IMG/VR virus record: IMGVR_UViG_3300045973_000245 | Span: 1-62,755 of that record | Reading direction: 5' to 3' (one strand) | Length of the DNA stretch: 62,755 nt | Source of the DNA: a virus | Lineage: Duplodnaviria; Caudoviricetes | In this document: in pieces, positions 2,701 through 59,698 of the stretch | Position numbering within the stretch: the stretch's first letter is position 1 | Layout: the number at the start of each line of letters is the position of its first letter | Program-made: the position numbers and the translations under genes | The notes under the pieces: model-generated | Told to the model about the DNA's origin: nothing | The model's input: only the letters and a program-made list of their open reading frames with translations | Database searches by the model: none

Positions 2701-3014
2701 GAACTCACTACTTTGTATGGCAAGATGATGATACTATGAAGTTGTATCCCTATACAGTTTTCAAACTAGATGGTATCATGATAACTAAGATTGCTTGCTT
2801 CAAAAATCTTTGGGAAGCAGGAGATTATGCAGATTTTCTAGAAAGAAAAGAGTTTCCAAAATGAACATTTTGCTTTGGGTTTCAATTGTAATAATGGTAC
2901 TTCAATATCTAGTAATGGCAATAGATACGAAGATATCGGGTGGTGTAAAAATTCTGGCCTATGCTTTGACAATGCCGATTTTCATTTACTTGATTCTGTC
3001 TATCTAGTTTTCTC

Positions 3015-3089
3015 GCAGGTGTAACTCAATTGGCTAGAGTAGCTGACTTTTAATCAGCAAGTTGGGGGTTCAAATCCCCCCGCCTGTAC
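3015..3089 (+). tRNA. tRNA-Lys(TTT)
   Basis: Acceptor GCAGGTG/CGCCTGT, anticodon arm GCTGA-CT-TTT-AA-TCAGC, T-arm GGGGG-TTCAAAT-CCCCC; only C of CCA encoded. Confidence 0.92.
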
Positions 3090-3117
3090 TTGTATTATAA
3101 TGAAAAAGGAAGGGTAA

Positions 3118-4035
3118 ATGGCATTTCATATACATGACTACGGCAAAGTCTACAACAATGGCGTTAAATACGTTATGGAAGTGTTTAATGGTCCTGTTAC
3201 TGTGCAAGAAAAAGTAGATGGAAGTCAGATTTCTTTCGGCTTTATTGAAGGCGAACTTTGCTTTCGTAGCCATAACCAGCAGATAATGTGCTATGCCCCT
3301 AATGATATGTTTGCGGCAGGTGTTAAAGCTATCGAAGAAATCAAAGATATGCTTATCCCTAATGTAATCTATCGTGGTGAGTATCTACAGAAACCAAAGC
3401 ACAATGCTTTAAAGTATGAACGAGTGCCAGCCCGACATATCATTCTATTTGATATGGAAGATGCAACCCATCCAGATAACTATTTTCCATCTGATATAGT
3501 AGCCGAAGAAGCCGAACGTTTAGGCTTGGAATGTGTACCAACCTACTTTGTGGGTAAAGTAGATAGTGTAGAGAGTTTGCTACCGTTCTTGACTGAGAAG
3601 AAGCCAATTTTAGGCGGAGATTTCATAGAAGGAATAGTAATCAAGAACTACAATTTGTCCGATGGTATGGGTAAATTCCTGAAGGCTAAAATTGTGGCAG
3701 ATGATTTCCGAGAAGTACACAAACAAGCGTGGGGTGAAGCTAACCCTAGCCGCCAGGACGTTGTTAAAGAGCTTGTGGGGTATCTTAGGACAGAAGCAAG
3801 GTGGAACAAGGCTATTGCCCACCTGAAAGAGAACGGGGAATTACAAGAGGCTCCACAGGATATCGGCCCGCTATTAAAAGCGGTGAATCAGGATATCCTT
3901 GACGAAGAAATAGAATACATCAAAGAGATTCTATTTAAGCACTTTTGGAAGGATATATCTCGCGGAGTAACTAATGGACTTCCAGAGTGGTATAAGCGAA
4001 AACTAGTTGGTGTCGATATGGGCATTGACTTGTAA
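3118..4035 (+). CDS. ATP-dependent RNA ligase, Rnl2 family
   Basis: Motif I QEKVDGS, RGE, LFD, motif IV EGIVIK, motif V KAKI, plus an Rnl2-like C-terminal domain. Confidence 0.85.
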   Translation: MAFHIHDYGKVYNNGVKYVMEVFNGPVTVQEKVDGSQISFGFIEGELCFRSHNQQIMCYAPNDMFAAGVKAIEEIKDMLIPNVIYRGEYLQKPKHNALKYERVPARHIILFDMEDATHPDNYFPSDIVAEEAERLGLECVPTYFVGKVDSVESLLPFLTEKKPILGGDFIEGIVIKNYNLSDGMGKFLKAKIVADDFREVHKQAWGEANPSRQDVVKELVGYLRTEARWNKAIAHLKENGELQEAPQDIGPLLKAVNQDILDEEIEYIKEILFKHFWKDISRGVTNGLPEWYKRKLVGVDMGIDL

Positions 4036-4043
4036 TAGTTTGC

Positions 4044-4116
4044 AGAGAGTTGGTGTAAAGGTAGCACAAAAGCTTCCAAACCTTTTAGTACGGGTTCAAG
4101 TCCTGTACTCTCTGCC
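4044..4116 (+). tRNA. tRNA-Trp(CCA)
   Basis: Acceptor AGAGAGT/ACTCTCT with G discriminator, loop TT-CCA-AA (CCA 4076-4078), T-arm ACGGG-TTCAAGT-CCTGT; ends CC then T. Confidence 0.8.
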
Positions 4117-4264
4117 TAAGCCTAGCGTGTAACGAGTTAGATTATAGAGGGTCTAACCACCGCCATGACGCTAGGCTTTTCTCACGGCAATAACCCAAAA
4201 AGGTCGTTAACCCGTCTATCCTCTTATAGTGTAGGGGGTAGTGCGTCAATTATCGGGGTCTAAT

Positions 4265-4340
4265 GGGGGCGGGTTGGTTTCGACAAACAATAAACCGAAA
4301 GGCATTGTTTGGACCTCGGTTCAATTCCGAGCGCCTCCAC
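4265..4340 (+). ncRNA. ssrA: mini-tmRNA: tRNA-like domain only, no mRNA-like domain
   Basis: 5' GGGGGCG...GGTTTCGAC and 3' GGAC-CTCGG-TTCAATT-CCGAG-CGCCTCC-A-C with G3.U70, joined by helix AAACAAT/ATTGTTT capped with CC-GAAA-GG. Confidence 0.8.
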
Positions 4341-4365
4341 TAACTTAATGAAAGGGGGTGTATAA

Positions 4366-4596
4366 ATGACTAAGAAGAGAAAGAAACAGCAAGAAGGAGT
4401 AAAAGCTTTCTCTCATATTGATGAGTATATCTATGAGATTCTCTTGCGCGAAGATATGTTTGATGATGTTGCATCATCGACTGAGCGTTGGAGTAAATTC
4501 GATAGAATCATTGAACAAGTGAGGGACAGTGTTAAGGAATCTTTGCAAAAATCGTTTGACGAAATCTTTGGTGAAGACACCATCGTCGTCATGTGA
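4366..4596 (+). CDS. hypothetical protein
   Basis: GGGGGTG RBS upstream of ATG. Confidence 0.5.
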   Translation: MTKKRKKQQEGVKAFSHIDEYIYEILLREDMFDDVASSTERWSKFDRIIEQVRDSVKESLQKSFDEIFGEDTIVVM

Positions 4597-4764
4597 AGGA
4601 AAAAGAATGTGTAAGTATTTCATAACATACAAAACTCAAGGTGGAGAAATTCGTACTCTAGTAGGACAAGTAGAGTCGGATAAAATTGCTGATGTGTGGG
4701 TAAAAAGTTTGCCCAATCGAGCAACTGTGTTGACTATTTTCATTAGTATGGTCTAGGTGATTAA

Positions 4765-5829
4765 ATGATTGAAGAAGTGATGGAAGTGGTCACTGAAATC
4801 ATGGACCCAATTCCGGTTTATGGTGTTGGTGGCATGGTAAGGGATTGGCTAATGGATAGGGAGTCTGATGATATAGACCTAACTACTCCTGCCACTCCAG
4901 ATGAAATCATTGCACAACTGGAAATAAAAAATCCAGGGCGCAAGATATGGGAAACTGGTAAGCGGTTTGGTACGGTAGCAACTAAAATATACCTGCCTAC
5001 AAGTGACCGCTATGAGAAAGTTGAAATTACCACTTTCCGCACAGAAGAATATGATGGTAAAAGTAGAAAACCTAAAGTGGAATTTGTTAGGAATCTACAT
5101 GAAGACCTAATGCGTCGAGATTTTACCATTAATGCTATTGCGGTACGACTGAAAAAAGGTCGTATTCATATTATTGACCCGTTCAATGGTATGGGTGATA
5201 TCGAAAGTGGTATTATTCGCGCGGTAGGTAGTGCAAAACAGCGTTTTAGGGAAGACCCACAACGTATGCTTAGAGCAGCAAGGTTTAATTCTGCTCTTGG
5301 TTTCCCAATTGAAGAAATTACTATGAAAAGAATGAGGGATGCAAGTCCTGCAATTCTTAAAGTGAGCAAAGAACGTTGGATGCAAGAACTTGATAAACTA
5401 CTTGTAGGTCCAAATGTAATGCAAGCACTCTATATTCTTATGGAAACTAGGCTGCTAAATTACATGATTCCCGAACTTGCTCTGCAATACAATTATGACC
5501 AACAGACTCCATATCATGATTTCACTCTTTGGGAACATACTTGCCGAGTTGTTCAGGCAGTACCTAAAGATGATGTTGAACTGGCATGGATTGGTCTATT
5601 TCACGATGTAGGTAAACCTTATGCTGCATTTCAGAAGAATGAAGAGCAGAAGATTTACGTTGGTCATGAGCTAATCGGTAAAGAACTTACCGAACAAATT
5701 GGTAGGCATCTGAAATGGTCTGCTGATAGAATCAAAACTGTCTCTGAAGGTGTAGGTAATCACCTTGATGAGAAAAGTCGTATCAAAGGCTACGACTCTG
5801 GCGCACAGAAAAGGGTAGATAATGAATGA
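4765..5829 (+). CDS. cca: class II tRNA nucleotidyltransferase (CCA-adding enzyme) with HD domain
   Basis: VGG.VRD..DDIDL, RTEEY..SRKP loop, RRDFTINA, EDPQRMLR, LFHDVGKP. Confidence 0.9.
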   Translation: MIEEVMEVVTEIMDPIPVYGVGGMVRDWLMDRESDDIDLTTPATPDEIIAQLEIKNPGRKIWETGKRFGTVATKIYLPTSDRYEKVEITTFRTEEYDGKSRKPKVEFVRNLHEDLMRRDFTINAIAVRLKKGRIHIIDPFNGMGDIESGIIRAVGSAKQRFREDPQRMLRAARFNSALGFPIEEITMKRMRDASPAILKVSKERWMQELDKLLVGPNVMQALYILMETRLLNYMIPELALQYNYDQQTPYHDFTLWEHTCRVVQAVPKDDVELAWIGLFHDVGKPYAAFQKNEEQKIYVGHELIGKELTEQIGRHLKWSADRIKTVSEGVGNHLDEKSRIKGYDSGAQKRVDNE

Positions 5830-5998
5830 GTTATCTACCCTTTTTGTGTTGCGTCTAGAAGTTATCCATAGTACTCTAACGAATTATATTGATACGATGG
5901 ATGAAAAAGACCTTCCGTATGAAGCAATAAATGAATTAGAAAATGCTAGGGGACACATCAACGCAGCTATATTATACATTGAAGAAGGAGAAGTTTAA

Positions 5999-6214
5999 AT
6001 GAGTAGTACAAGTAATGCAGGTACAAGTAGCGTAGCATCGTTTCCTATTGCCTGGATTCTAACGATTGTGTTTGTTGTGTTGAAACTAACACACACTATT
6101 GATTGGAGTTGGTGGTGGGTACTTAGTCCTCTTTGGATTAGTGCAGCTTTTGTAATTGCAATTTTGCTACTCGTTGCAATTATAATTGTTATTGCTGCTC
6201 TTCTTAAGGATTAA
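5999..6214 (+). CDS. small membrane protein
   Basis: LTIVFVVLKLT..IDWSWWWVLSPLW, two TM segments. Confidence 0.65.
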   Translation: MSSTSNAGTSSVASFPIAWILTIVFVVLKLTHTIDWSWWWVLSPLWISAAFVIAILLLVAIIIVIAALLKD

Positions 6215-7210: not shown

Positions 7211-9127
7211 ATGAACATCATTCTTCCTAAGTCTGATGCTAACAAATTCGTTAATGAAATTAATGAGTTTGCCCTAGATATACGCGCACCACATAGTAGC
7301 TATTACTATGAAGATTTAACGTCGCGCGGAGTCTATTCATGGGTACATTATTCAGAGTACCCGCCGCTCACAAAAGAATTTGTGGACGAATATCTAGCCA
7401 CAAAATTCCCTCACCTTACAGTACTTCATACCATAAAAGAAGAGCAAGATAGCTACTTCGCGTATGAACAAAAAGTGCTGGTAAATGCTGGGGATTCAAC
7501 TAACACAAGCGTAACACAAGAAATAGCGTGGAGAAATAAAGTAAATGAAACTGTAAATCAGTTTGATTTTCTTCTACCGTTTGTGTTAGAATTCAATCCG
7601 AAGGACTGCAATTTTGCTCGATATACTCCTACAGTTATGCTCACTCCGTATGGGATATGGTATAATCAAGGGAAACCGCATATTAGTGCTGGTCCTCAAA
7701 TTCTGGCTTTTAACAAAGCCGCAGTATTGGCGTATAACCAATCTCAGTATAATCCTGCATTCTTATACGAAGCACAGGACCATTCCGGGGATTATCTTAC
7801 GCTTCCATTTGCTTTGGTTTATGAGAATAAACGAGGCTTAGGGAATACTGTGCAGATGTGTTCTAATAAATTCTATCCGACTCAAACTATTTCAAAACAG
7901 AAGACTATCTTTGATTTACTTGCTGAGCCGACTATATGGAAGAGAATTATATTTCATTTGCTTTGGACTCCGCTTGCTCAACTAAAGATTGAATCTGAGC
8001 AAGTAGTAATTCCGCTCTCTTTGCAGGTAAAAATGTTTTCTTTCCAGAATCAATCTGCAATTAGGCAGGAGATAGAATCATTAGAGAACAATAAGGGCGA
8101 AATGCGACGTAATATCGACGCATATATCAAGGAAATCACTAACTACAAGGTAAAAGAGAGCCTGTTAGAAGAGCAGATTATTGTGAAGCATAAAGAGCTT
8201 GCTCGTAGAGCTTCCAGTAAAAACTTTGAGAGAGAACTGAAGAATCTCAAGACTCTTCCCTACATAAAAGACTTTGAGTTTAAAGGTGGTGGAATCTGCT
8301 TTTATACAGAACCTATACAGATTGATAGTGGGCCTACTCTTGGTGGGTACGAAATCAAGTACTCAATGGTTGATAAGAGCCTCAAGATTAGAAACGTAGA
8401 CAATCCTCATGAGAGTCTTGCACACCCGCATATTTATCAGGATGGAGATATCTGTTTTGGTAACTACACTGATGTATTCTTCCGGTTTGAAACAGGAGAA
8501 TTCTACATTGGTATGCAATTGTTGCATGAATTCTTGTCTAGCTATAACCCGGAAGATGAATGGGGACGTAGGCTAATCTATTGGGATGCCAAATTTGTCT
8601 TTGAAGATATGAAGATGCGTGGACTTCTTCATAAACTAGAAGGCAAATGGGATTCGTACTATTACGATATCTATCACGAACACATGAGTAGCAACAACTA
8701 TTGTTCTAGTTGTGAGTTGCCATTGGACGAATGTGAATGTGACCGTTGCCAGTATTGCCAGGAATTCACAGATAACTGTGAGTGTTGGATTTGCTATTCC
8801 TGCGGTGAATTGGTAGAAGATGGTTGTGGGTGTGAACGATGTGCTTCTTGTCAAGAATTGATTAGGGATTGTGGTTGTGAGCGGTGTGAAAACTGCGAAG
8901 AATTGACAAACACTAACTACAGCCCATGCTGTGAGTGTGAACGTTGTCCTGATGATGATTCACTTCTTGATGAAGATGATGAACGTTGTCTCACTTGCCA
9001 AAATACAGACTGTGGACATAACATGAACGAAGACCCTATTCCTACTCAAGAGGAAGAATTGCCACTGCATGAAGCAATGGAACCTGACATATATGAACTA
9101 CTTAGAACAGTATTGGAAGGACGATGA
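7211..9127 (+). CDS. multidomain prokaryotic E2 (UBC-fold)-like protein with coiled coil and C-terminal Cys-rich repeats
   Basis: HPHIYQDGDICFGN (H405..C415) matches the UBC HPN-x7-C active site; coiled-coil-like stretch ~aa 280-345; five CxxC-x-CxC repeats. Confidence 0.75.
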   Translation: MNIILPKSDANKFVNEINEFALDIRAPHSSYYYEDLTSRGVYSWVHYSEYPPLTKEFVDEYLATKFPHLTVLHTIKEEQDSYFAYEQKVLVNAGDSTNTSVTQEIAWRNKVNETVNQFDFLLPFVLEFNPKDCNFARYTPTVMLTPYGIWYNQGKPHISAGPQILAFNKAAVLAYNQSQYNPAFLYEAQDHSGDYLTLPFALVYENKRGLGNTVQMCSNKFYPTQTISKQKTIFDLLAEPTIWKRIIFHLLWTPLAQLKIESEQVVIPLSLQVKMFSFQNQSAIRQEIESLENNKGEMRRNIDAYIKEITNYKVKESLLEEQIIVKHKELARRASSKNFERELKNLKTLPYIKDFEFKGGGICFYTEPIQIDSGPTLGGYEIKYSMVDKSLKIRNVDNPHESLAHPHIYQDGDICFGNYTDVFFRFETGEFYIGMQLLHEFLSSYNPEDEWGRRLIYWDAKFVFEDMKMRGLLHKLEGKWDSYYYDIYHEHMSSNNYCSSCELPLDECECDRCQYCQEFTDNCECWICYSCGELVEDGCGCERCASCQELIRDCGCERCENCEELTNTNYSPCCECERCPDDDSLLDEDDERCLTCQNTDCGHNMNEDPIPTQEEELPLHEAMEPDIYELLRTVLEGR

Positions 9128-9933
9128 TAATGACAGCTATTGCCCAAACAACTTTGTGGATTCCTCCTAAGATTTATGCAGAGCTAATGTTTTATGCATG
9201 GACAGTTGATGCAGAAGTTGGTGGTGTAGGTACTCTGGAATTCAATTGTCCAGAGCCTAATGATATCTATGTGACCGAAGTATTTCTTGAAAAGCAGAAA
9301 GTGCATGGCACCGAATGCCTGCTTTCTAAAGACGATTCTACCTATGAAAAATTGATTCTCAGTAATGAGATTGAAAAAGCGTGTAAGCTGCAACTTTGGT
9401 GGCATTCTCATCACACAATGGGTGCAGGACACTCTACGACTGATGATACAACGATGCGAGAGTGGTCCGGGGAATATGTCGTGGCTTTAGTAATCAACCG
9501 CAAGGGAGATTTGAAAGCTAAACTTATGACCAAAATTCCTGTAATGGTTGTCGGAGATATTGAGGTAAGAATCAATTGGCTCGACATTGAAGCAGGAGAA
9601 GAAATGGGTGCAGAAGTAGCAGCTAAAGTTACTAAAGAAGCCCCTCAAGCAGTAGTAACGTATTGTGGCAATTATGCTCAGCAGCAATGGCAGCAAGTAA
9701 GTGGTGAATATGAGCATGATAAACAGACAGGCTTATGGGGCAAAAAGAAAAAGGATGATGAAGCTACCCCTTTACACAGTATGACCGAGGCAGAGTGGGT
9801 AGAAATGGAAGAAGAGTATTACGAACTGCTGGACGACAAAGACATAAAAACTCTAGGTTTTCCAGTAGGTGAAATGGACGCAGATGAAAAGAGAGCGTTG
9901 AAACAGATTTGGGATGCTAAGGAATGTGACTGA
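9124..9933 (+). CDS. JAB/MPN+ (JAMM) metalloprotease, deubiquitinase-like
   Basis: EVGG glutamate and WWHSH-x7-S-x2-D JAMM motif; acidic tail. Confidence 0.88.
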   Translation: MIMTAIAQTTLWIPPKIYAELMFYAWTVDAEVGGVGTLEFNCPEPNDIYVTEVFLEKQKVHGTECLLSKDDSTYEKLILSNEIEKACKLQLWWHSHHTMGAGHSTTDDTTMREWSGEYVVALVINRKGDLKAKLMTKIPVMVVGDIEVRINWLDIEAGEEMGAEVAAKVTKEAPQAVVTYCGNYAQQQWQQVSGEYEHDKQTGLWGKKKKDDEATPLHSMTEAEWVEMEEEYYELLDDKDIKTLGFPVGEMDADEKRALKQIWDAKECD

Positions 9934-10124
9934 TGCAAAAGACTGATGTAGGAGAAGTCTGGATTATCTGGCGTAAAATACCAGGAACTCATCATAACTC
10001 AATATGGGAAGTGTGTGATGATGAATATTCTGGCCAGAAAATTCTGAATACACTGATGAATAAATCAGAATTCACTATGTATAAGTATGCAATCACGCAT
10101 GTTGTGACGGAGAGAGTAATATGA
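9933..10124 (+). CDS. hypothetical protein inside the Ubl cassette
   Basis: Overlaps the stop of JAB and the start of E1. Confidence 0.5.
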   Translation: MQKTDVGEVWIIWRKIPGTHHNSIWEVCDDEYSGQKILNTLMNKSEFTMYKYAITHVVTERVI

Positions 10125-10786
10125 CAGACGTAAATGAGGCGTATCTTCGTAGCATTGATATCTTTGACCCCAATAAAGCTAGGCCAGTATCTATTATTGG
10201 TTGTGGGTCTATTGGTAGCTTTGCTGCTAAGACTCTAGCTAAGATGGGTGTACAGAAGTTTAATCTGTATGATGGTGATATTGTCACTCAGGTTAACATT
10301 GGTTGTCAGGATTTTGGCTGGAAAGACCTAGGAAAACCCAAAGTTGAGGCTGTTAGGGACTTGATTTTAGAAAACTCTCCTGTAAAGCCAGAGGATATCA
10401 ACATCCATTTTGGCTATATAGATGATAAGTCTAAGTTGCCGTTTATTCCTACGATTGTAGGAGTGGACAGTATGACAGCAAGACATTTGATTTGGGGCAA
10501 ACTAAAGAATAAGGCACCTATTATAATTGACGGGCGCATTGGTGGACAGATTGTAAGAGTATTCAGCGTCACTAATGATTATGCAAGCATGGAATACTAC
10601 GAACAATATCTGAAAACTGATGAAGAAGCTGAAGAGCTACCGTGTACACAACGTAATGTGTGCTATGTGGCTAACATTACTCAAGGCATCATAGGACAAA
10701 TGATGCGGAGCTATATCGAGAAAGGGGTAGCTGCTAAAGAAATCGGTATTGATGTGGAGACGTTTATAAACTACGTTAAGGAGTAG
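10121..10786 (+). CDS. ThiF/E1-family Ubl-activating adenylyltransferase
   Basis: IIGCGSIGS, YDGDIV..VNIGCQ, GKPKV, VGVDS..AR, DGRIGG, LPCTQ candidate catalytic Cys. Confidence 0.9.
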   Translation: MTDVNEAYLRSIDIFDPNKARPVSIIGCGSIGSFAAKTLAKMGVQKFNLYDGDIVTQVNIGCQDFGWKDLGKPKVEAVRDLILENSPVKPEDINIHFGYIDDKSKLPFIPTIVGVDSMTARHLIWGKLKNKAPIIIDGRIGGQIVRVFSVTNDYASMEYYEQYLKTDEEAEELPCTQRNVCYVANITQGIIGQMMRSYIEKGVAAKEIGIDVETFINYVKE

Positions 10787-22906: not shown

Positions 22907-23335
22907 ATGAAAGCTAAAGCAGTATGTGTAATGCGTACTGACCTAAGAAATAGTGATGGGCACAAAGTACCCAAAGGTAAGCTCATTGCTCAAGGCGGTC
23001 ATGCTTTTGTAGGGATGTTGACTAAACTTATGGGTACGGTGTTAACCTTTGACCCCGATGAATACTATGATGAAAAGACTTTATATTGTCGGCATGGTGG
23101 GGCATTATATGAGTGGCTTCGTGGTTCTTTTACTAAGGTAGTTCTTGGTGTAGATTCTGAAGAAGAACTTTTGAGTATTTATGCAGCAGTGAAAAAAGCT
23201 GGCTTTAATGCAGTTCTTATCACTGATAATGGTTTGACTGAATTTCATGAGCCAACTAATACTTGCATTGGTATCGGTCCTGATTGGGAAGACAAGATAG
23301 ATGCAATCACTGGACACTTGAAAGGATTTCAATGA
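22907..23335 (+). CDS. pth2: peptidyl-tRNA hydrolase, PTH2 family
   Basis: MRTDL..KGKLIAQGGHA, TKVVL, ITDNGLTEF..PTNTCIGIGP. Confidence 0.9.
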   Translation: MKAKAVCVMRTDLRNSDGHKVPKGKLIAQGGHAFVGMLTKLMGTVLTFDPDEYYDEKTLYCRHGGALYEWLRGSFTKVVLGVDSEEELLSIYAAVKKAGFNAVLITDNGLTEFHEPTNTCIGIGPDWEDKIDAITGHLKGFQ

Positions 23336-24704: not shown

Positions 24705-25370
24705 TTGAAAGTAATACTTAAAGCGCGTGTAGGGTCACATCTGTATGGGCTAGACACGCCTGAATCAGATGAAGATTTTCTCGGTGTTTATGTTGCAAGA
24801 ACTTGGGAAGTTCTTAGTCTACATCACAAACCGCAGGAAACAGGTGTAACTAAAGACCCTGACTGTACTATTCATGAAGTAGAAAAGTATATGAAGTTAG
24901 CTGCACAGGGAAATCCGACTGTATTGGAGCTTCTATTTTGCCCCGAATATCTTGAACAAACTTTTGAAGGTGAACAGCTACTTTATTATAGGGATGCATT
25001 TCTAAGTAATCGTGTTAGAGACAGCTATGGTGGGTACGCCTATCAGCAATCTAAGAAACTAGAGACACGTATTAAGCAGGGACTAGAGGGATTTGAACCC
25101 GCAGTAAAGAAGCGTTACGAGAAACACGCACGACATATCTTTAGATTGATGCTACAGGGTGAAGAGTTAATGACAACGGGAACTATAACTCCGCGCGTTA
25201 AAGACCCTGAATCTTTGTTTGCGATTGGGAAATTGCCGCCAGAGAAATTGATTCCTAGATTTGAAGAGGCATATGCAAGGTATAAAGAACTGCCTAGCAT
25301 ACTCCCTGAACAACCAAAGTGGGAAATCTTGGATATTTTGCTGAATGATATAAGGAGAAGAAACTTATGA
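24705..25370 (+). CDS. Pol-beta-superfamily nucleotidyltransferase (RlaP/Nuc-transf-like)
   Basis: GSHLYGLDTPESDEDFLGV, GNPTVLELL, K.ARH..RL. Confidence 0.85.
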   Translation: MKVILKARVGSHLYGLDTPESDEDFLGVYVARTWEVLSLHHKPQETGVTKDPDCTIHEVEKYMKLAAQGNPTVLELLFCPEYLEQTFEGEQLLYYRDAFLSNRVRDSYGGYAYQQSKKLETRIKQGLEGFEPAVKKRYEKHARHIFRLMLQGEELMTTGTITPRVKDPESLFAIGKLPPEKLIPRFEEAYARYKELPSILPEQPKWEILDILLNDIRRRNL

Positions 25371-26182
25371 TTCTTTTCAATGGCGTTGAACCAGTTAAAA
25401 AGTTTCCTAATGGGGAGACTCATATTGATACTGATTTGATTATCAATAGAATGAGTCTGAAAGTCAATATTATCTCTTGCAAGTACGAGTCAGATGCAGA
25501 CCTGTTTCAACTAATGTTACTCAAGAGATATACTGACACTCTTTCTTGTGTTTGTCAACTTTTTATTCCATATCTGCCATACAGCAGAATGGATAGAACT
25601 GAAGCCGGTAGTGCTTTCACCTTGAAATATGTGTGTGAGTTTATCAATAGCCTGAACTTCTATGAAGTGCATGTAGTTGAGCCACATTCTGATGTATCAG
25701 TAGCATTGCTAGATAAAGTCAAGGTGCATTTTGTTACAGATAAGTTATTTGAGTATGCCTCTAATTATTGGGGCTTTAACGAGAATGACTACATCTTTTT
25801 TCCAGATGCAGGTGCTAAGAAAAGATACAAAACGTTTAACAGTGAGAATATTATCTTTGGTGATAAGGCTAGAGATTTTTCCACTGGCAAGATTACTGGT
25901 CTTAATGTGATTGGTGACTTCAAGCCGGGTGGGTTAGTTTACATTATTGACGACCTGTGTTCTTATGGTGGAACATTTGTGCTGGCAACAGAGAAACTAA
26001 TGGAAATGGGTGCAAGAGCAGTAATACTTATTGTGGCCCATTGCGAAGATTCTTATCTACAAGGGAAAATCCCTGCTAATAACGATATTATCAAGGTACT
26101 ATCTACTGATAGTATTTACACAAAAGGTTCTGAGGGAAAGCTGACCATCTATAAAGCCAATAAATTTTTGGGGGATAAATGA
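25367..26182 (+). CDS. ribose-phosphate pyrophosphokinase-like protein (candidate Adps of NARP1)
   Basis: KFPNGE, PYLPYSRMDR, EPHS, FPDAGAKKRY, IIDDLCSYGGTF. Confidence 0.85.
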   Translation: MILFNGVEPVKKFPNGETHIDTDLIINRMSLKVNIISCKYESDADLFQLMLLKRYTDTLSCVCQLFIPYLPYSRMDRTEAGSAFTLKYVCEFINSLNFYEVHVVEPHSDVSVALLDKVKVHFVTDKLFEYASNYWGFNENDYIFFPDAGAKKRYKTFNSENIIFGDKARDFSTGKITGLNVIGDFKPGGLVYIIDDLCSYGGTFVLATEKLMEMGARAVILIVAHCEDSYLQGKIPANNDIIKVLSTDSIYTKGSEGKLTIYKANKFLGDK

Positions 26183-27651
26183 TTAACCCGACGCTGCTCT
26201 GTGACTTTTACAAGATTTCTCATAGGGAACAGTACCCTACAAATACTGAAATGATTTACTCTACTTGGACCCCAAGAATGAGTAGACTCAAAAATGTGGA
26301 TAAGGTAGTTGCCTTTGGATTCCAAGCGTTTGTTAAGAAGTATCTCATTGACTATTTCAATGAGCAGTTCTTTGATAGACCAGTAGAAGCAGTTGTTTAT
26401 GACTATAAGAGGATGATTGGTTTTACTCTTGGGCAGAAAGATGTTAAAGCTGACCATCTAATTGCACTACATAAACTAGGCTATCTTCCTATTAGGATTA
26501 AAGCAGTACCAGAAGGTACAAGGGTTCCACTAAGAGTACCGATGCTTACAATTGAGAATACTCTTCCTGAATTCTTTTGGGTAACGAACTATCTTGAAAC
26601 TCTTATGAGTTGTGAGCTATGGCAGGCAACTACTAGTGCCACAATTGCATATGAATACAAGAAACTTCTAACTTCATGGGCAGATAAGACTAGTGACCAA
26701 CCTGAATTTGTTCAGTTCCAGGCTCATGATTTTTCTATGAGAGGTATGGGCAGTATTGAAGCCGCACAATTAAGTGGTGCAGGGCACTTGTTATCATTTG
26801 TGGGAACAGATACTATTCCAGCAGTTATATTTCTAGAAGAGTATTACAATGCTGACATAGAGAAAGAACTTGTAGGTACTTCTATTCCTGCCACTGAGCA
26901 TAGCGTAATGGAAGCCTACGGTACGGATGAAATGATATCCTACAAACGATTCATTACTGAAGTATACCCAACTGGCTTTGTATCCATTGTGTCTGATACT
27001 TGGAATCTATGGGCAGTGTTAACGAAAGTTATTGCAGGACTCAAGAAAGAAATCATGGCGCGTGATGGTAGAATTGTTATTCGACCTGATTCTGGCGACC
27101 CGGTAGATATTCTTTGTGGAAAAGCTGATGGAGATTCTGTTGAAGAATGCAAAGGTGTAATTGAAATCCTTTGGGAAATCTTTGGTGGAACAACTAATAG
27201 TAAGGGGTTTAAACAACTTGATTCTCATATTGGTGCTATTTATGGGGATGCTATTACTCTGGACCGCGCTAACCTTATTTGTGAAAAGCTTGCGGAGAAA
27301 GGTTTCTCAAGTACCAACGTGGTATTTGGTGTTGGGTCTTATACTTATCAGTACAACACTAGGGATACTTTTGGATTCGCTTTGAAGTCTACCTTTGGTG
27401 TTTTTGGTGGAGAAGAGAAACTCTTATTCAAAGACCCGGTAACTGATACGGCCAATTTCAAGAAGTCTGCAACAGGGCTTGTTACTGTATTGATGAACAA
27501 CAAGACTCATGAGATTGTCTTGCAGGATGGATTAGACCTTCAAGGTCGGGAGTATGCACACAATATGGACATACTACAGGATATCTTTGTGGATGGAAAA
27601 CTAATTGTTGATGATACCCTAGCGAACATTAGGGCAAGATTGGTGGTATAA
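26179..27651 (+). CDS. nicotinamide phosphoribosyltransferase-like protein (candidate Namat of NARP1)
   Basis: DFYK.SH..QYP, HDFSMRG, PATEHS, SIVSDT, IRPDSGDP, YGDAIT, GVGS. Confidence 0.9.
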   Translation: MINPTLLCDFYKISHREQYPTNTEMIYSTWTPRMSRLKNVDKVVAFGFQAFVKKYLIDYFNEQFFDRPVEAVVYDYKRMIGFTLGQKDVKADHLIALHKLGYLPIRIKAVPEGTRVPLRVPMLTIENTLPEFFWVTNYLETLMSCELWQATTSATIAYEYKKLLTSWADKTSDQPEFVQFQAHDFSMRGMGSIEAAQLSGAGHLLSFVGTDTIPAVIFLEEYYNADIEKELVGTSIPATEHSVMEAYGTDEMISYKRFITEVYPTGFVSIVSDTWNLWAVLTKVIAGLKKEIMARDGRIVIRPDSGDPVDILCGKADGDSVEECKGVIEILWEIFGGTTNSKGFKQLDSHIGAIYGDAITLDRANLICEKLAEKGFSSTNVVFGVGSYTYQYNTRDTFGFALKSTFGVFGGEEKLLFKDPVTDTANFKKSATGLVTVLMNNKTHEIVLQDGLDLQGREYAHNMDILQDIFVDGKLIVDDTLANIRARLVV

Positions 27652-28324: not shown

Positions 28325-28671
28325 AAGTTTATCAGCTTATAGCAGAGTTACAGAAGTATGACCTGGATACAGAAGTATTCATGTCAATTGACGAAGAAGG
28401 AAACGGTTTTGCTCAATTAGACGTTGCTCAGGAGAATGCTATGGAAGATATGGAAAATGGAGAAATTGTAGATGGTGTTATTCTTTGGCCGGGTGGAGCA
28501 GAATATTGGGAAGCTGTAGAATGAAAACTAGATGTAAACATGACTGGCCTAAATGGGGAGAACCCTACTTTGTTGATGCAGAGTGGGGTGGTAAACTTCT
28601 TAAGAAGGAATATCAAAGACGAGCCTGTAATAAATGTGGGCTAATAGAGAAAAATTTTATAGGAGATTACT

Positions 28672-29886
28672 ATGCCTTTGAATGTAGATAGCACACAAAA
28701 ACTGCCGATTAAGATTTGGCTACCTTTGGTAGAGATTCCTATGCCAGAAGATTACATTCTTACTCCGCAGTACAAGATAGATATTGAAGAGGGAGCATTA
28801 GCGCAGGCACATAACCTTGCTAATCTTCCGTTCCTCTATAAGCACGTTGCGCTTATGCCTGATACCCATCAGGGTTATGGTATGCCTATTGGTGGTGTGA
28901 TAGCTGCTAAAGGTGTGGTCATTCCGAATGCTGTAGGGGTGGACATTGGTTGTGGAATGTGTGCATGTGAGACGAGTTTAACTCTTGGGGATATCAACGT
29001 AGAGGATATCAAGTTTATTATGGGTCAGATTCGTGAAGCGATTCCGGTAGGATTTGAACACCATAAAGAACGTCAAGCAGGGCTTCCGTTATTCAACGGT
29101 AATGAAACTGTCATTACTAGGCAAGCAGATTCCGCAGCGTATCAGTTAGGAACTCTTGGTGGTGGAAATCATTTTATTGAAATTCAAGCTGATAGCTGGG
29201 ATAACATTTGGGTGATGATTCATTCTGGCTCTCGTAATCTAGGTCTGAAAGTAGCTGATTACTACAACAAATTAGCAGTTCAGTTGAATGAACGTTGGTT
29301 CTCTGAAGTGCCTAAGAAATGGGAATTAGCTTACCTTCCGATTGAAACCCAGGAAGCAAAAGACTACATGCAGGAAATGCAGTATTGTGTGGAATTTGCA
29401 TTCGCCAACCGTATGCATATGATGAGAGCAATAGAGAAAATCTTTGCTCAGGTTACTGGTGCAACGTTTGAGGATGCAATCAACATTGTACATAACTATG
29501 CTGCATGGGAAAACCACTTTGGACAGAATGTATTGGTACATAGGAAAGGTGCAACTCGCGCTCGTAAAGGTGAGGTAGGTATTATTCCTGGTAGCATGGG
29601 TACTGCATCATACATTGTGGAAGGCTTAGGAAACGCTGAATCGTTTAACTCTTGCTCTCATGGAGCAGGGCGTAAAATGGGCCGCAAAGATGCAACTAGA
29701 AGGTTAGACCTTGATGCAGAGGTTGCAGCTTTAGATGCGCGGGGAATCATTCATGGTGTTAGACATAAAGAAGATTTAGATGAAGCACCTGGGGCATACA
29801 AAAACATAACTGAAGTAATGGATAATCAGGCAGACCTTGTTCAAATCAATGTTCCACTAAGACCATTGGCAGTAATTAAAGGATGA
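28672..29886 (+). CDS. rtcB: RNA-splicing/repair ligase RtcB
   Basis: MPDTHQGYGMPIG, VGVDIGCG, GTLGGGNHFIE, HSGSR, HRKGA, SHGAGR. Confidence 0.95.
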   Translation: MPLNVDSTQKLPIKIWLPLVEIPMPEDYILTPQYKIDIEEGALAQAHNLANLPFLYKHVALMPDTHQGYGMPIGGVIAAKGVVIPNAVGVDIGCGMCACETSLTLGDINVEDIKFIMGQIREAIPVGFEHHKERQAGLPLFNGNETVITRQADSAAYQLGTLGGGNHFIEIQADSWDNIWVMIHSGSRNLGLKVADYYNKLAVQLNERWFSEVPKKWELAYLPIETQEAKDYMQEMQYCVEFAFANRMHMMRAIEKIFAQVTGATFEDAINIVHNYAAWENHFGQNVLVHRKGATRARKGEVGIIPGSMGTASYIVEGLGNAESFNSCSHGAGRKMGRKDATRRLDLDAEVAALDARGIIHGVRHKEDLDEAPGAYKNITEVMDNQADLVQINVPLRPLAVIKG

Positions 29887-36034: not shown

Positions 36035-36586
36035 ATGAAGACAAACATAAACAAGATATGGTTTACTGGTTCTCATGGTACTGGTAAAACTACTCAGATG
36101 GAGTATTTTCATCAGATACACCCGGAGTTTGGGAAGATGAAAATGGAGCGTCGAGACTTACATAAGCAAGGCATTATTAAGCTGAATAAAGATGCGGCTC
36201 CGTGGGATGAAGTGGTAATTGCAGGGTCAGTTATGCTAGCGATTCTTGCCACCGCTTCACCATTTATTTCAGATAGAAGTTGGGTGTGTAAATGTGCTTA
36301 TTCTCAAGCATTACCCTTTCGTCAAGAAATACTAGACGCATTCCATACATTGTACACAGATGCATTTCCTGGTATGAATGAGGCTACAGAAAAATACTTC
36401 TACTTTCCTCCCACAATAGGGCTAGAGAATGATGGTGTTAGAAGTACAGACGTAGAGTATCAAAAAGAGATTGATTTGAACGTGCAGTTCTATCTTAATT
36501 TCTTTGGCATCCCTTATCACACTATCACAGCCAGCACGATTCAAGATAGAAACTTTGAAATAGAGCGTGAGGTATTTAAAAAGTGA
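36035..36586 (+). CDS. P-loop nucleoside/nucleotide kinase (AAA_28/NadR-like)
   Basis: TGSHGTGKTT, ISDRS, ENDGVRS. Confidence 0.75.
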   Translation: MKTNINKIWFTGSHGTGKTTQMEYFHQIHPEFGKMKMERRDLHKQGIIKLNKDAAPWDEVVIAGSVMLAILATASPFISDRSWVCKCAYSQALPFRQEILDAFHTLYTDAFPGMNEATEKYFYFPPTIGLENDGVRSTDVEYQKEIDLNVQFYLNFFGIPYHTITASTIQDRNFEIEREVFKK

Positions 36587-39657: not shown

Positions 39658-40013
39658 TGAGTAAAGTGTCACAACAATGGAAAGCACTAGAGAAACTCGT
39701 TGCTCAAAAACTAGGCGGGGTACGCTTAGTTAGAGGCGAGGATTTTGGCGTCTCTATGCTAGATGTTGAATGTGACCAATGGGCGGTAGATTGTAAATGG
39801 CGCTCTTCTTTAGCGACTGTAACGTGGTATAAGAAGTTGATTAAAGACAATGACAAAATCTACGGACGAGGAAAGAAGGTGCCAATACTAGTAATAAAAG
39901 AAAAGGGAATGCGCGGTGAATTAGTTGTGATATCGCTTGACGATTTCATTAACGTAGTAAATGACGAACGATATAAAATTGAATCAAAGGAGACAGAAAA
40001 TGACAAAGAATGA
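39657..40013 (+). CDS. resolvase-like PD-(D/E)xK nuclease
   Basis: WK.LE..VA..LGG.R...DV.....VDCK.R. Confidence 0.65.
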   Translation: MSKVSQQWKALEKLVAQKLGGVRLVRGEDFGVSMLDVECDQWAVDCKWRSSLATVTWYKKLIKDNDKIYGRGKKVPILVIKEKGMRGELVVISLDDFINVVNDERYKIESKETENDKE

Positions 40014-40314
40014 ACCACTTCTAGAGACTCTTAAAGTATCTAAAACAACCAACCCAAGTAAACTAGCTGGGGCAGTTGTAAAAATTACTCAGAAGGGTGC
40101 TGACTGTGAAATTATCGCCATTGGAGCAGGACCGATTAACCAGGCTATTAAGTCTATTGCCATTGCTAACAGGTTACTTGGTTCCAGTGGTGTTTCTCTT
40201 TCTGTTAAACCATGCTTTACAACTCTTGACCTTTCTACTGAGAAGCGCGAAGGGCAAGAAGAAGGTAAATCAGAAGTAACAGCTATTCTATTCAAAGTTA
40301 TTGTAGACAAGTAA
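40000..40314 (+). CDS. spoVS: stage V sporulation protein S
   Basis: LKVS..TNP.KLAGA, AIGAG.INQAIKSIAIA, P.F...TAI.F. Confidence 0.88.
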   Translation: MTKNEPLLETLKVSKTTNPSKLAGAVVKITQKGADCEIIAIGAGPINQAIKSIAIANRLLGSSGVSLSVKPCFTTLDLSTEKREGQEEGKSEVTAILFKVIVDK

Positions 40315-56706: not shown

Positions 56707-57207
56707 ATGGAGCTTAAACTTTCTCAAGGTAAAATTGCTGTAGTCGATGATGAAGATTTTGATTTGATTAGCTCTTATAAGTTCAAGTTGCGTGAGTCTA
56801 AGTCAAGCGGTTTTTATGTGGATTGCTACTTTAGAGATAGCAATAACAAACGAAAATATGTTCCTATGCATAGAATAATTATGGAAGCAGAAAAGGAACA
56901 GAACGTAGACCATAAAAACGGTAACGGCCTTGATAACCGCCGAGAGAATTTAAGATTTTGTACAGATAGCCAGAACGCTATGAATCGAACTAGGATAGTA
57001 GGAAAGTCCTCGTATAAAGGAATCTACTGGAATACTGCCAGTAAAGGTTGGTATTCTAGAATTTATGTAAACAAGAAAAGAATTAACTTAGGAACTTATA
57101 AAGATGAAGTAGAAGCTGCTAAAGCATATGATAAGGCTGCTATTAAGCATTTCGGAGAATTTGCAAAAACTAATTTTAAGGATAAGAATGGAGACGACTC
57201 TAGTTAA
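56707..57207 (+). CDS. HNH-AP2 homing endonuclease
   Basis: MHRII..VDHKNGNGLDNRRENLR plus AP2 domain; paralog of 47811..48308. Confidence 0.9.
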   Translation: MELKLSQGKIAVVDDEDFDLISSYKFKLRESKSSGFYVDCYFRDSNNKRKYVPMHRIIMEAEKEQNVDHKNGNGLDNRRENLRFCTDSQNAMNRTRIVGKSSYKGIYWNTASKGWYSRIYVNKKRINLGTYKDEVEAAKAYDKAAIKHFGEFAKTNFKDKNGDDSS

Positions 57208-59698
57208 ACTTTCGCACCGTAGCGAAGAAAAGATAGTGGACAGTATTGTTAAACTCTCTCAGATTATGGGGGAGGTTACTTACTATCCTTATCAACTTTC
57301 GTTCGCTCGTAGATTAACTCAGAGTATTGTCACAAATGAAGGCGCAACTCTTACCGCTCTATTTAGTCGGCAATGTATTGCTGAAAATTCCCTTATTATG
57401 GACCGTAATGGCAACATCTTGCCTATTCAAAAACATCCGAATGCATGGCTCACTGAAGCTGCTGCTCCTATTTGGGAGATAAAAACCTTCGGTGGGCATA
57501 CGATTAACTGTACAGAAGAACATCCTATTGCTACTCCTAGCGGATATGTGTCTGCTTTTTGTTTGAAACCATACGATAAAGTTATTGTTTTAGACAGATG
57601 GGATAAGTTTGGGGATGGACGTATCCCTGTAAAAGAGGGATACATTTCTATTAATAGTGATTTAGCTGAACTTGTTGGCTGGTTTACAGCCTATATCAAA
57701 ACAGATGATGAAGTAAAAATCATCGACGGGAAAGATAGAGTAGTCGAACTACTTACTAAATACTTTCCCGCTACCCCTCTCCGTACAACACGGAATCAAG
57801 CCATCATAAAGATTGATGGTCCTTTCAAAGCCTTTCTCAGAACCATGAAGTTTAACGCTTCTGGTTTCCCTGAGAACGTCAATTACTTCACCCGTTCCCA
57901 AACCATCAGTTTCTTTGCGCCCATTTTTAGATTAAAAGGCAAATCGTATAAGAAACCCACGACAGTTAAGACTATCATAAAGGGAGATAAGACTTTCTTG
58001 CTTTATGCAAAAGAGCATCTTAACAAGTTGGGGCTGCATGGTAATCTAGAAGTGTGGATAGGTGATTGTTTAATCTTTCAGTGTAATGATAACTACTTCC
58101 GCATGAAAGAACTTTTTGGAGATTTTCTTCCAAACAACTTTTTCCCACCACTTTATGTGTCTCGTAAGAGAACTAAAAAGATAACTCTTGGTGAAGATGG
58201 GGAAGAGTTAATGGAAACTAAAGTTTACTCTGTAAAAAAACTTGACAAACTAATGCCAGTGTGGGATACTACAATAGAAGATAAGGGTTGGTTCTTATGT
58301 TCTGGAGCTAAAGTACATAACTCAGGCAAGACTCAGGTAGTAGCTATGGTTACTGCTGCTTGTATGGTTATGCTTCCAAAATTAGCTGAAAAGTTTCCCC
58401 ACAATTTTGGGCTATTTATCAAAGGCTTTTGGGCGGGCTGCTTCGGACCCGTTGGAGAGCAAGCGGTGACGATGTTCGATAGAATTTACTCCGTTTTTAC
58501 GACAGAAACGACTAAGAAAATGTTCATCGAGGAATTGAAAATGCCAGTACCCGCGCAAGGTGGAGCAAGGGGTAACTTAATCAAGCTACAGAACAAGTCT
58601 TTTGTTCGTTATATGTCTTCAAGTAAACGCGCGAGGATTGAATCTAAGACCTATCACTTGATTATCTTAGATGAATGTCAGGACATGGAATCCTTCAAAG
58701 TGAAGAAATCTATTCTTCCAATGGGGGCTGCTGTAAACGCTACAGTTGTAGCAACAGGTACTCCTGATATTTATATTGGATTCTTCTATGATATGATTGA
58801 GAAGAATAAGCAACAAGATTTAGAAGGTGGTAAACAAGCTCATTTTGAGACAGATTATCTTGTTGCACAACGATACAATCCAATGTATAAAACTTTCGTA
58901 GCTAAGCAGAAGAAAGATTTACTAGAAGACTCCGATGAATTCAAGATGGCATATCGTCTTATCTGGCCTATCACAAAAGGTATGGTGTTTACTAAAGCCC
59001 AACTTGAGGAAAAAAGCTATGATAAGTCTCTAAGAATAGTTAAGAAATACAAAGAATCTTTATGTATTGCTGGTTTAGATTTAGGAAAAAGTCAAGACTC
59101 TACGATAGTTACAGTCATTAGACCATTTTGGGCAGATGCAGACGAAGAAGGAAACATGCCTAAACAGCTTCTAGATTGGCTAGAACTGGAGGGTGATGAG
59201 TGGGAAGTACAGTATCCAAAAGTAGTTGATTTTCTTGACAACTTTAACATTGATACTCTTGTCTGTGATAGCACAGGAGTAGGCGACCCGATTAGAGAGC
59301 ATTATACCGTTTTATTGCCGAAGGTGAATGTTGTTCCTTTTGTATTCAGCCCAACAACTAAAGATATAGGCTATAAATACTTGATGCAGGAGATTAATCA
59401 AAAACGAATGTTGATTCCTGCCCACACAACTACCAGAAACACAAACAGGTTTAAGAAGTTTGAGCTACAAATGACCACAATCAAGAAACATTATAGTGGT
59501 AAGTTCTTAAATCCATGTCCGGTAGACGCTGAAAAAGGGCATGATGATTATCCTGATTCACTAATGTTAGCTACTTTTGGAACGTACTTTGATACGATGC
59601 CAGAAATGGAAACTTCGGCTAACGATATCTTCTCCACATACAGAGACGGCTACGACCTTGGAAAGCTGTATTCGTCACACATTAGGAGAAATCAATAA
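57188..59698 (+). CDS. terL: terminase large subunit, interrupted by an intein
   Basis: Walker A SRQ^SGKT split by the intein, ILDECQ Walker B, ATGTP, GLDLGK..D, DSTGVGD, HDDYPDS. Confidence 0.92.
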   Translation: METTLVKLSHRSEEKIVDSIVKLSQIMGEVTYYPYQLSFARRLTQSIVTNEGATLTALFSRQCIAENSLIMDRNGNILPIQKHPNAWLTEAAAPIWEIKTFGGHTINCTEEHPIATPSGYVSAFCLKPYDKVIVLDRWDKFGDGRIPVKEGYISINSDLAELVGWFTAYIKTDDEVKIIDGKDRVVELLTKYFPATPLRTTRNQAIIKIDGPFKAFLRTMKFNASGFPENVNYFTRSQTISFFAPIFRLKGKSYKKPTTVKTIIKGDKTFLLYAKEHLNKLGLHGNLEVWIGDCLIFQCNDNYFRMKELFGDFLPNNFFPPLYVSRKRTKKITLGEDGEELMETKVYSVKKLDKLMPVWDTTIEDKGWFLCSGAKVHNSGKTQVVAMVTAACMVMLPKLAEKFPHNFGLFIKGFWAGCFGPVGEQAVTMFDRIYSVFTTETTKKMFIEELKMPVPAQGGARGNLIKLQNKSFVRYMSSSKRARIESKTYHLIILDECQDMESFKVKKSILPMGAAVNATVVATGTPDIYIGFFYDMIEKNKQQDLEGGKQAHFETDYLVAQRYNPMYKTFVAKQKKDLLEDSDEFKMAYRLIWPITKGMVFTKAQLEEKSYDKSLRIVKKYKESLCIAGLDLGKSQDSTIVTVIRPFWADADEEGNMPKQLLDWLELEGDEWEVQYPKVVDFLDNFNIDTLVCDSTGVGDPIREHYTVLLPKVNVVPFVFSPTTKDIGYKYLMQEINQKRMLIPAHTTTRNTNRFKKFELQMTTIKKHYSGKFLNPCPVDAEKGHDDYPDSLMLATFGTYFDTMPEMETSANDIFSTYRDGYDLGKLYSSHIRRNQ
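57374..58321 (+). mobile_element. intein (316 aa) with degenerate LAGLIDADG region
   Basis: Starts CIAENS, block B CTEEHP, ends KVHN followed by Ser+1. Confidence 0.9.

Follow-up and report, generated by a model that had tools for sequence, protein, structure and literature searches.

We analysed a 62,755-nucleotide stretch of DNA from an uncultured phage of the Caudoviricetes (hereafter the window), which is the entire linear IMG/VR virus record IMGVR_UViG_3300045973_000245 (CheckV completeness 54%, G+C content ~39%). At positions 4265–4342 of its plus strand lies a short element that we predict to be a functional gene for a tag-less mini form of transfer-messenger RNA (tmRNA), consisting of the tRNA-like domain (TLD) and the P2a helix closed by a 12-nt inner element. 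The Rfam tmRNA model RF00023 matched this segment at 65.7 bits (cut-off 47, E 2.2e-23), far beyond chance, and the same match was recovered when the window's own IMG/VR record was searched. The alignment runs over model positions 1–374 but skips 308 of them, in whose place 12 nt stand between the P2a strands. In the clan CL00001 competition at 4265–4342 the tmRNA model beat the tRNA model (RF00005). A first-pass annotation, made from the letters of the DNA alone, had described the locus as the TLD of a tmRNA without its mRNA-like domain and had proposed covariance-model and ARAGORN searches as checks. The covariance model bears out that description; ARAGORN called six tRNAs in the window and missed the mini-tmRNA.

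The mini-tmRNA is 75 nt long to its discriminator base and 78 nt long with a CTA tail. The 7-bp acceptor stem is formed by GGGGGCG (4265–4271; assigned from sequence, fold and Rfam alignment) and CGCCTCC, which is followed by the discriminator A (4332–4339; sequence and Rfam alignment). Both conserved tmRNA ends are thus present, as the first-pass annotation had stated, together with an alanine identity set: G3 (G4267) lies opposite U70 (U4336) in a G3.U70 wobble, and the discriminator is A73 (A4339). G3.U70 and A73 are the determinants of alanyl-tRNA synthetase (AlaRS). The D-loop analogue GGTTGGTTTC (4272–4281) is part of the conserved GGNUUCGAC motif and aligns to the tmRNA consensus with high posterior probability, as do GGTTTCGAC at 4276–4284 and GGAC at 4311–4314. 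The P2a helix pairs GAC followed by AAACAAT (4282–4291) with ATTGTTT followed by GGA (4304–4313), giving non-Watson-Crick G.A and A.G pairs, then C-G, then seven Watson-Crick pairs; both strands are supported by the Rfam alignment, by the fold and by covariation in the family described below. A single C separates the GGA from the T arm (CTCGG/TTCAATT/CCGAG, 4315–4331; sequence, Rfam alignment and fold), which has 5 bp and a 7-nt GGUUCNANUCC-type loop.

The inner element (4292–4303) stands in for the whole mRNA-like and pseudoknot domain. It comprises an AAA bulge (4292–4294), a CC-GAAA-GG mini-hairpin whose stem of 2 bp is closed by the GAAA loop, and one C (4303); the bulge and the C separate the hairpin stem from P2a. 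The first-pass annotation had placed a 76-nt element at 4265–4340 and had drawn a 7-bp helix capped by CC-GAAA-GG. The element is real and the seven Watson-Crick pairs are there, but the length is not 76 nt, the cap is not directly joined to the helix, and the helix itself belongs to the longer P2a. The minimum-free-energy fold contains the expected three helices (−27.8 kcal/mol, z −2.32).

A tag reading frame, a resume codon and pseudoknots are all absent from the element, as judged from its sequence and its RF00023 alignment, and ARAGORN reports neither a tmRNA nor a tag peptide there, in keeping with the earlier statement that no frame and no pseudoknot are present. With only 12 nt between the P2a strands and 308 model positions deleted, a tmRNA with full tagging function is excluded. 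A canonical tRNA with D arm, anticodon arm and anticodon was rejected, given the lack of an ARAGORN call and the higher score of the tmRNA model. A hidden tag frame or a two-piece arrangement was likewise set aside: the permuted tmRNA model RF04321 reached 31 bits on the 3′ half (cut-off 47), and a 5′-truncated 27-bit alignment, seen only when 4100–4400 was searched alone, is read as a cut artefact.

The window's element is one of a large family. A strict pattern, composed of the TLD landmarks with a 10–40-nt gap, was run on IMG/VR and on species genomes. In IMG/VR it found 93 loci, which together with the window make 94 matches and 64 distinct sequences of 61–87 nt; this is a count of exact motifs and misses divergent members, including those of Mycobacterium phage DS6A and Streptomyces phages BRock and pSt2308 (see below). 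Lengths are tightly grouped, with 54 of the 64 distinct sequences at 75–80 nt. The same pattern found only 10 loci in genomes of 185,579 prokaryote species (one genome per species), mostly on short contigs of metagenome-assembled genomes (MAGs). This scarcity, together with neighbours that are phage genes of different modules, indicates that the mini-tmRNAs are phage-specific. Two of the species-genome matches are in the cultured alphaproteobacterium Microvirga lenta, on two contigs (L098 and L101), and the remaining eight come from MAG contigs, of which one bears an archaeal label.

The structure is maintained across this family. In a MAFFT alignment of the 64 distinct sequences, 92.9% of cells are paired, compared with 66.7% after shuffling (none of 500 shuffles reached the observed value) and 42–55% in slid registers. 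Covariation scores 0.653 in the alignment, as opposed to 0.139 for shuffles and 0.08–0.13 for slid registers. Seven of the eight P2a pairs change on both sides, which is the covariation in the short helix that the first-pass annotation had suggested looking for, as do three of the five T-arm pairs, and the T arm is 100% paired throughout. RNAalifold, supplied with no structure, returned the same helices, with compensatory changes in 9 of 16 pairs. In some rows an additional D-loop base is wrongly placed by MAFFT, and the acceptor-stem count is lowered as a result; when the start is set by pairing, 59 of 64 sequences have all seven acceptor pairs, and acceptor pairs 5 and 6 covary. All 18 family loci searched with Rfam scored above the tmRNA cut-off (56–81 bits). 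ARAGORN, run on 60 family loci, made no correct call and three miscalls overlapping the element. The mini-tmRNA structure is under selection across a large phage family and is not a one-off or a decaying remnant. The earlier preference for selection over decay is therefore upheld by the RF00023 score and the family-wide covariation, though not by the sign on which it had leaned, a clean GNRA cap.

The hairpin loop sequence varies over the family, so the GNRA loop of the window is not a conserved feature; the recurring feature is instead an A-rich bulge with a CC..GG stem after it. By regex classification, 42 of the 64 distinct sequences, the window included, have an A-rich bulge with a CC..GG/UG hairpin, and the rest comprise eight with an AU-rich 12-nt loop, seven with a plain short hairpin and seven classed as other. 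DS6A and the BRock-like phages share a GAAAGCCGCACGCGG-like inner motif (an A-rich bulge, then CCGC-loop-GCGG) with hardly any variation, while their P2a strands differ with compensation (family alignment A1 and loci L117, L132, L133 and L097). This near-invariance suggests a sequence-specific contact. The inner motif loosely resembles the A-rich stretch and Ala codon that precede the tag frame in one full-length phage tmRNA with an annotated tag peptide. We also considered a 'resume and stop' signal, since 47 of the 64 sequences have a stop triplet close to where the P2a 5′ strand ends. It was set aside, as the triplet lies within the A-rich motif and is absent in 17 sequences, and as the P2a loop lies away from the decoding centre.

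Members were also found in cultured phages. Blastn of the element against cultured phages returned T-arm pieces only, and these led to Streptomyces phage pSt2308, Erwinia phage Cronus and the uncultured phage LR756511. Unannotated 81-nt mini-tmRNAs occur in four Streptomyces phages, pSt2308 (61 bits with Rfam), BRock (64.5), GiJojo (57.4) and LuckySocke (57.1), all inside tRNA clusters and adjoining tRNA-Val where checked. The available text of the BRock genome announcement reports 29 tRNAs and mentions no tmRNA. Cronus (Tevenvirinae; MH059636.2, ~65785–65854, minus strand; L116 1462–1531) carries an unannotated 70-nt tRNA-like element in a tRNA cluster, whose acceptor stem has G3.U70 and whose T arm is almost the same as in the mini-tmRNA of the window; it scores only 28 bits on the tmRNA model and is without the UUCGAC motif. 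The 595-kb LR756511 (L118 1177–1531) encodes a tmRNA of full length (122 bits) that agrees with the mini-tmRNA of the window in acceptor stem (GGGGGCG/CGCCTCC) and T-loop, and that likewise has no encoded CCA.

No close relative of the window phage was found by megablast of positions 3000–6000 against phages, by tblastn with a 638-aa ORF (open reading frame) described below, or, as a confirmed relative, by an IMG/VR locus search with its CCA-adding enzyme. PolA and RecA gave matches of 40% identity or less only, across many hosts. The portal protein matches only 10 phage records, at ~30% identity or less. They are made up of cultured phages (the 113–116-kb BRock-like Streptomyces phages, Bacillus phage BCD7 and a Bacteroides phage) and a single scaffold from a faecal sample, which is unverified. 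The BRock-like Streptomyces phages are thus, by portal sequence, distant relatives of the window phage. BCD7 and a faecal phage, which share the portal type, have no mini-tmRNA.

A TLD-only tmRNA is a kind already known, in print since 2009–2014, and the novelty implied by the first-pass annotation does not hold. A list in PMC4131195 gives 'Mycobacterium phage DS6A (TLD only)', and a passage there, citing Mao et al. (2009), states that a DS6A-like molecule, chargeable or not, strongly inhibits tmRNA, perhaps via SmpB titration; a passage in PMC11915505 repeats the inhibition and adds mitochondrial and plastid tmRNAs that lack a coding sequence (CDS). Full-text searches, with supplementary files outside their scope, found no paper describing a broad family of phage mini-tmRNAs; some of these phages may appear in the phage tmRNA table of PMC9004378.

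We located the DS6A element (tmRNA Website tmID 11587, Phage__Mycobacterium.9) at 28478–28560 of JN698994, where it is unannotated in GenBank. Like the mini-tmRNA of the window it is phage-encoded and about 80 nt long, carries G3.U70 and A73 on its acceptor stem, has the D-loop analogue, P2a and the T arm, lacks a tag frame and pseudoknots, and shows an inner element of A-rich bulge and CC..GG hairpin as well as a CTA tail. It differs in its score (43.2 bits, below the Rfam cut-off, against 65.7 bits for the window), its longer inner hairpin (CCGC/GCGG), a GGTCGAC/GCAC motif variant and 69% GC. DS6A is a 60.6-kb actinophage in which the element adjoins a DNA polymerase III gene, whereas that of the window lies in a tRNA and RNA-repair region. 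The BRock-like mini-tmRNAs share the architecture (57–64.5 bits), and that of BRock has an RNA ligase gene nearby. Their phages infect high-GC actinomycete hosts, they have a longer inner motif, GAAAGCCGCACGCGG, that hardly varies from one to another, and their acceptor stems differ from that of the window (GGGTTTG in BRock, for example).

The CDS-less organellar tmRNAs (mitochondrial RF02544, and a ~65-bp plastid form in Mallomonadaceae) also consist of the tRNA-like part only, with no tag frame, and their function is presumed in a passage of PMC11915505 to depend on SmpB. In contrast to the phage RNAs, they belong to cells or organelles, are passed on vertically and mostly come in permuted or two-piece form, and each is the sole tmRNA of its compartment rather than a competitor beside a full-length host tmRNA. 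Full-length phage tmRNAs are listed in PMC4131195 for cluster C mycobacteriophages such as Bxz1 and for Bacillus phage G, often beside tRNAs, and a two-piece tmRNA is reported for phage Melnitz in a passage of PMC9004378. These phage tmRNAs keep the resume codon, tag frame and pseudoknots and can be called by ARAGORN, none of which applies to the mini-tmRNA of the window. Engineered TLD fragments from structural and kinetic studies have the same make-up, with TLD and P2a closed by a loop, but are laboratory constructs made from bacterial tmRNA and not natural genes. In the literature, the tmRNA TLD is charged by AlaRS and binds EF-Tu and SmpB, and the fragments show that an RNA of this kind can also enter the A site and take over the peptide: structure 4V8Q has one in the ribosomal A site together with SmpB and EF-Tu (according to a passage in PMC8012679), and peptidyl transfer to TLD-only tmRNA was measured in vitro (likewise from a passage in PMC3895274).

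In the window, 119 of 124 selected ORFs are on the plus strand, and the mini-tmRNA is co-oriented with all six tRNAs. It sits between tRNA-Trp(CCA) (4044–4116, plus strand; ARAGORN, and Rfam tRNA at 56.3 bits) and a 76-aa ORF (4366–4596). Upstream of tRNA-Trp is an RNA ligase gene (3118–4035, plus strand; phrog_548, E 5e-26; PF09414, E 5.6e-12), and 423 nt downstream of the mini-tmRNA begins a gene for a CCA-adding tRNA nucleotidyltransferase with an HD domain (4765–5829, plus strand; phrog_2244, E 1.4e-66; PF01743, PF12627 and PF01966). A gene for the peptidyl-tRNA hydrolase PTH2 lies at 22907–23332 (E 2.6e-28). The set for RNA repair and translation maintenance is unusually full, comprising RNA ligase, the HD-domain CCA-adding enzyme, PTH2, RlaP and RtcB (3118–4035, 4765–5829, 22907–23332, 24705–25367 and 28672–29883) in addition to the six tRNAs. 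SmpB (PF01668) and an integrase were not found in the window, by search of 119 ORFs and of six-frame translations, the window covering ~54% of the phage genome. The 148-nt spacer from tRNA-Trp to the mini-tmRNA (4117–4264) folds well (−45.7 kcal/mol, z −2.24) and has no Rfam match at E ≤ 1; directly after tRNA-Trp it forms an 11-bp stem followed by TTTTCT.

Other genes of the window are of separate interest. A run of three genes at 7211–10786 encodes a 638-aa protein without family match, a 269-aa protein with a weak JAB-domain match (E 6.4e-4, below cut-off) and a ThiF/E1-like protein (E 5e-15), and may be a phage set for ubiquitin-like conjugation and deconjugation. A NAMPT-like nicotinamide/nicotinate phosphoribosyltransferase (E 2.3e-41) and an AAA_28 protein, encoded at 26179–27648 and 36035–36583, may serve phage NAD salvage. 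Upstream of the portal gene, an 856-aa ORF (57128–59695) with a weak intein-splicing match (E 5.7e-5, below cut-off) may be a terminase large subunit split by an intein. A gene at 39961–40311 encodes a SpoVS-like protein (E 2.1e-19), which together with the low G+C content hints at a low-GC Gram-positive host.

The RNA-repair neighbourhood is a trait of the window phage and not of the mini-tmRNA family. Among clustered ORFs within 4 kb of 104 loci no universal neighbour family emerged. The largest cluster, DnaB helicase, accompanies nine distinct mini-tmRNAs, and other clusters are YqaJ exonuclease, ERF, prohead protease, capsid protein, portal and lysin. tRNA calls that do not overlap the mini-tmRNA were made at just 14 of 60 loci. 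Five other large mini-bearing contigs (78–194 kb, one rated 100% complete) all carry a mini-tmRNA above the Rfam cut-off, and none of the five has a full-length tmRNA or SmpB (PF01668). A conserved module with PTH2 or the CCA-adding enzyme was rejected, each gene being present in 0/5 of these contigs. The lack of SmpB, PTH2 and the CCA-adding enzyme in these five implies that the RNA would work with host proteins. At 3 of 18 loci a pistol self-cleaving ribozyme (RF02679, 51–52 bits, cut-off 34.5) precedes the mini-tmRNA by ~105–205 nt in the same orientation (L024 6093–6154, minus; L070 11838–11899, minus; L051 706–767, plus); L024 and L070 have an identical mini-tmRNA sequence. The ribozyme may be a processing device for the mini-tmRNA. 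An ARAGORN call of a 324-nt tmRNA with a tag at L024 was dismissed, as Rfam shows only an 83-nt mini-tmRNA and the upstream ribozyme there.

For function, we lean towards competition: the mini-tmRNA probably competes with host tmRNA for SmpB and stalled ribosomes and so blunts tagging, a reading we hold with moderate confidence. The RNA would be cut from the rightward transcript by host tRNA-processing enzymes, receive CCA from the host or phage CCA-adding enzyme, be charged with alanine by host AlaRS through G3.U70 and A73, and bind host SmpB and EF-Tu. Host SmpB is the expected partner, since the phage has no SmpB of its own in the window. The charged RNA would then compete with full-length host tmRNA for SmpB, EF-Tu and stalled ribosomes, and because it has neither resume codon nor tag frame, the proteins on those ribosomes would escape the degradation tag. 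Host trans-translation, both tagging and the steps that follow it, would thereby be blunted during infection. The first-pass annotation had proposed an SmpB/EF-Tu decoy or a tag-free rescue of stalled ribosomes; both appear reasonable as functions of the window's mini-tmRNA by analogy, and they are the two discussed for DS6A and for the CDS-less organellar tmRNAs in the passages cited above.

Several points weigh against competition with host tmRNA, or against the observations on which it draws. Some phages need host tmRNA, and blocking it is not obviously beneficial. CCA is not encoded in the element, whose 3′ tail is CTA, so that activity depends on 3′ trimming and CCA addition. This is common in the family, where CCA is encoded in 34 and not encoded in 30 of the 64 distinct sequences. 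Just two of the six phage tRNAs have a full CCA, the other four being without it; the phage CCA-adding enzyme therefore has evident substrates, the mini-tmRNA included, and could complete its CCA. A search of the plus strand from tRNA-Trp to the mini-tmRNA revealed no sigma-70-like promoter. The single-sequence fold only moderately beats shuffled sequences, 5 of 200 of which fold equally well, and the strong structural support comes from the covariance model and the homologues. In the family, invariance of the GGGG/CTCCA ends, of the GGNTTCGAC and GGAC motifs and of the T-loop core was imposed by the search pattern, and only the free positions count as evidence. As the window phage has no close relative among those searched, selection on its own copy is read from the family. 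Finally, inhibition by the DS6A mimic was tested in E. coli and is cited here through passages in PMC4131195 and PMC11915505.

The mini-tmRNA might instead rescue ribosomes productively without tagging, which we consider possible though less than likely. The early steps would be those of competition with host tmRNA, but the Ala-charged mini-tmRNA with SmpB would enter the stalled ribosome and accept the nascent chain; the peptidyl-mini-tmRNA would be released and hydrolysed by peptidyl-tRNA hydrolase, or another release factor would resolve the complex. Ribosomes serving the phage would be freed, and the product would carry one extra Ala and no degron. Peptidyl transfer to TLD-only tmRNA in vitro (PMC3895274) favours this, as does a passage of PMC11915505, which notes that SmpB accompanies mitochondrial tmRNAs without a tag frame and presumes that these assist where mRNAs are incomplete. 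PTH2, RtcB, RlaP, RNA ligase, the CCA-adding enzyme and six tRNAs give the window phage a translation-maintenance toolkit that would suit it. However, PTH2 and CCA-adding enzyme genes are found in none of the five other large mini-bearing contigs, and we know of no release step for a peptidyl-TLD. The citing passages on the DS6A-like molecule (PMC4131195 and PMC11915505), moreover, give it as an inhibitor of tmRNA and report no rescue activity. Cutting across both of these functions is the idea, which we regard as doubtful, that the mini-tmRNAs are more than passive SmpB sponges and have a second functional site that makes them a dedicated device for anti-tagging or tag-free rescue. That site would be the inner element, whose class is shared by 42 of the 64 distinct sequences and which hardly changes between DS6A and the BRock-like phages although P2a around it covaries freely; it could contact SmpB, the ribosome or a tmRNA-associated factor, and ribosomes stalled on phage messages would be released with a product bearing a single added Ala and no degron, a function that the window phage's own CCA-adding enzyme and peptidyl-tRNA hydrolase would support.

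The remaining explanations assign the RNA no part in translation. That it acts as a decoy or shield against host defences which target tmRNA or tRNA-like RNAs by sensing, binding or cleaving them, such as systems with SmpB-like domains or tRNA/tmRNA nucleases, strikes us as improbable. CoCoNuT Type IV restriction systems have SmpB-like domains predicted to bind tmRNA (per a passage in PMC11090510), a phage anti-CRISPR associates with tRNA and tmRNA fragments (per a passage in PMC11662646), and the RNA repair genes RtcB and RNA ligase of the window phage would fit. The argument is nevertheless purely by analogy, and every member retains the alanine identity set and an acceptor end that can be charged, which argues that aminoacylation matters, whereas a passive decoy needs none. 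We think it quite improbable, too, that the element is a tRNA-like punctuation signal (t-element) at which RNase P and RNase Z cut a polycistronic transcript to leave an idle RNA. It does lie in a co-oriented region of tRNAs and small ORFs, 23 nt upstream of the ribosome-binding site of the ORF at 4366–4596. But RNase P and RNase Z need only the acceptor/T-arm minihelix, while the elements of the window, DS6A and the BRock-like phages keep the D-loop analogue, the GAC/GGA base of P2a, G3.U70 and A73, and tmRNA-model scores run from 43 to 81 bits for the window and independently found members. Other lineages place the element between structural or replication genes with no tRNAs nearby, non-overlapping tRNAs being present at only the 14 of 60 loci noted above. 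That the element has no function and survives either as the decaying product of an internal deletion in a full-length phage ssrA or as an attP-type piece of the host ssrA has, in our view, hardly any chance of being correct. Full-length tmRNAs do exist in some phages, such as LR756511 (122 bits) and those listed in PMC4131195, and mini-tmRNAs probably arise by deletion. Against decay stand the intact and complementary halves, the compensatory changes that maintain the structure family-wide, and the narrow length classes (54 of 64 at 75–80 nt). The attP fragment, or ssrA 3′ end, was rejected because both halves are present, no integrase was found among the 119 ORFs of the window, which covers ~54% of the phage genome, and the 29-nt 3′ half has no exact match in the 185,579 species genomes; the first-pass annotation, which had argued against an attachment-site remnant, was right on this point.

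Trans-translation is the main ribosome-rescue and quality-control pathway of bacteria. How a phage RNA might interfere with it is a question already opened by DS6A and the inhibition experiment in E. coli. What the mini-tmRNA of the window adds is that the kind is widespread in phages and systematically missed by ARAGORN-based annotation, that it occurs in cultured, tractable Streptomyces phages, and that it carries a conserved inner motif without an existing explanation. For annotation, mini-tmRNA genes are detectable with the Rfam tmRNA model. For phage biology, a small phage RNA that takes over SmpB would, if true, be a compact, RNA-only reprogramming of host translation control.

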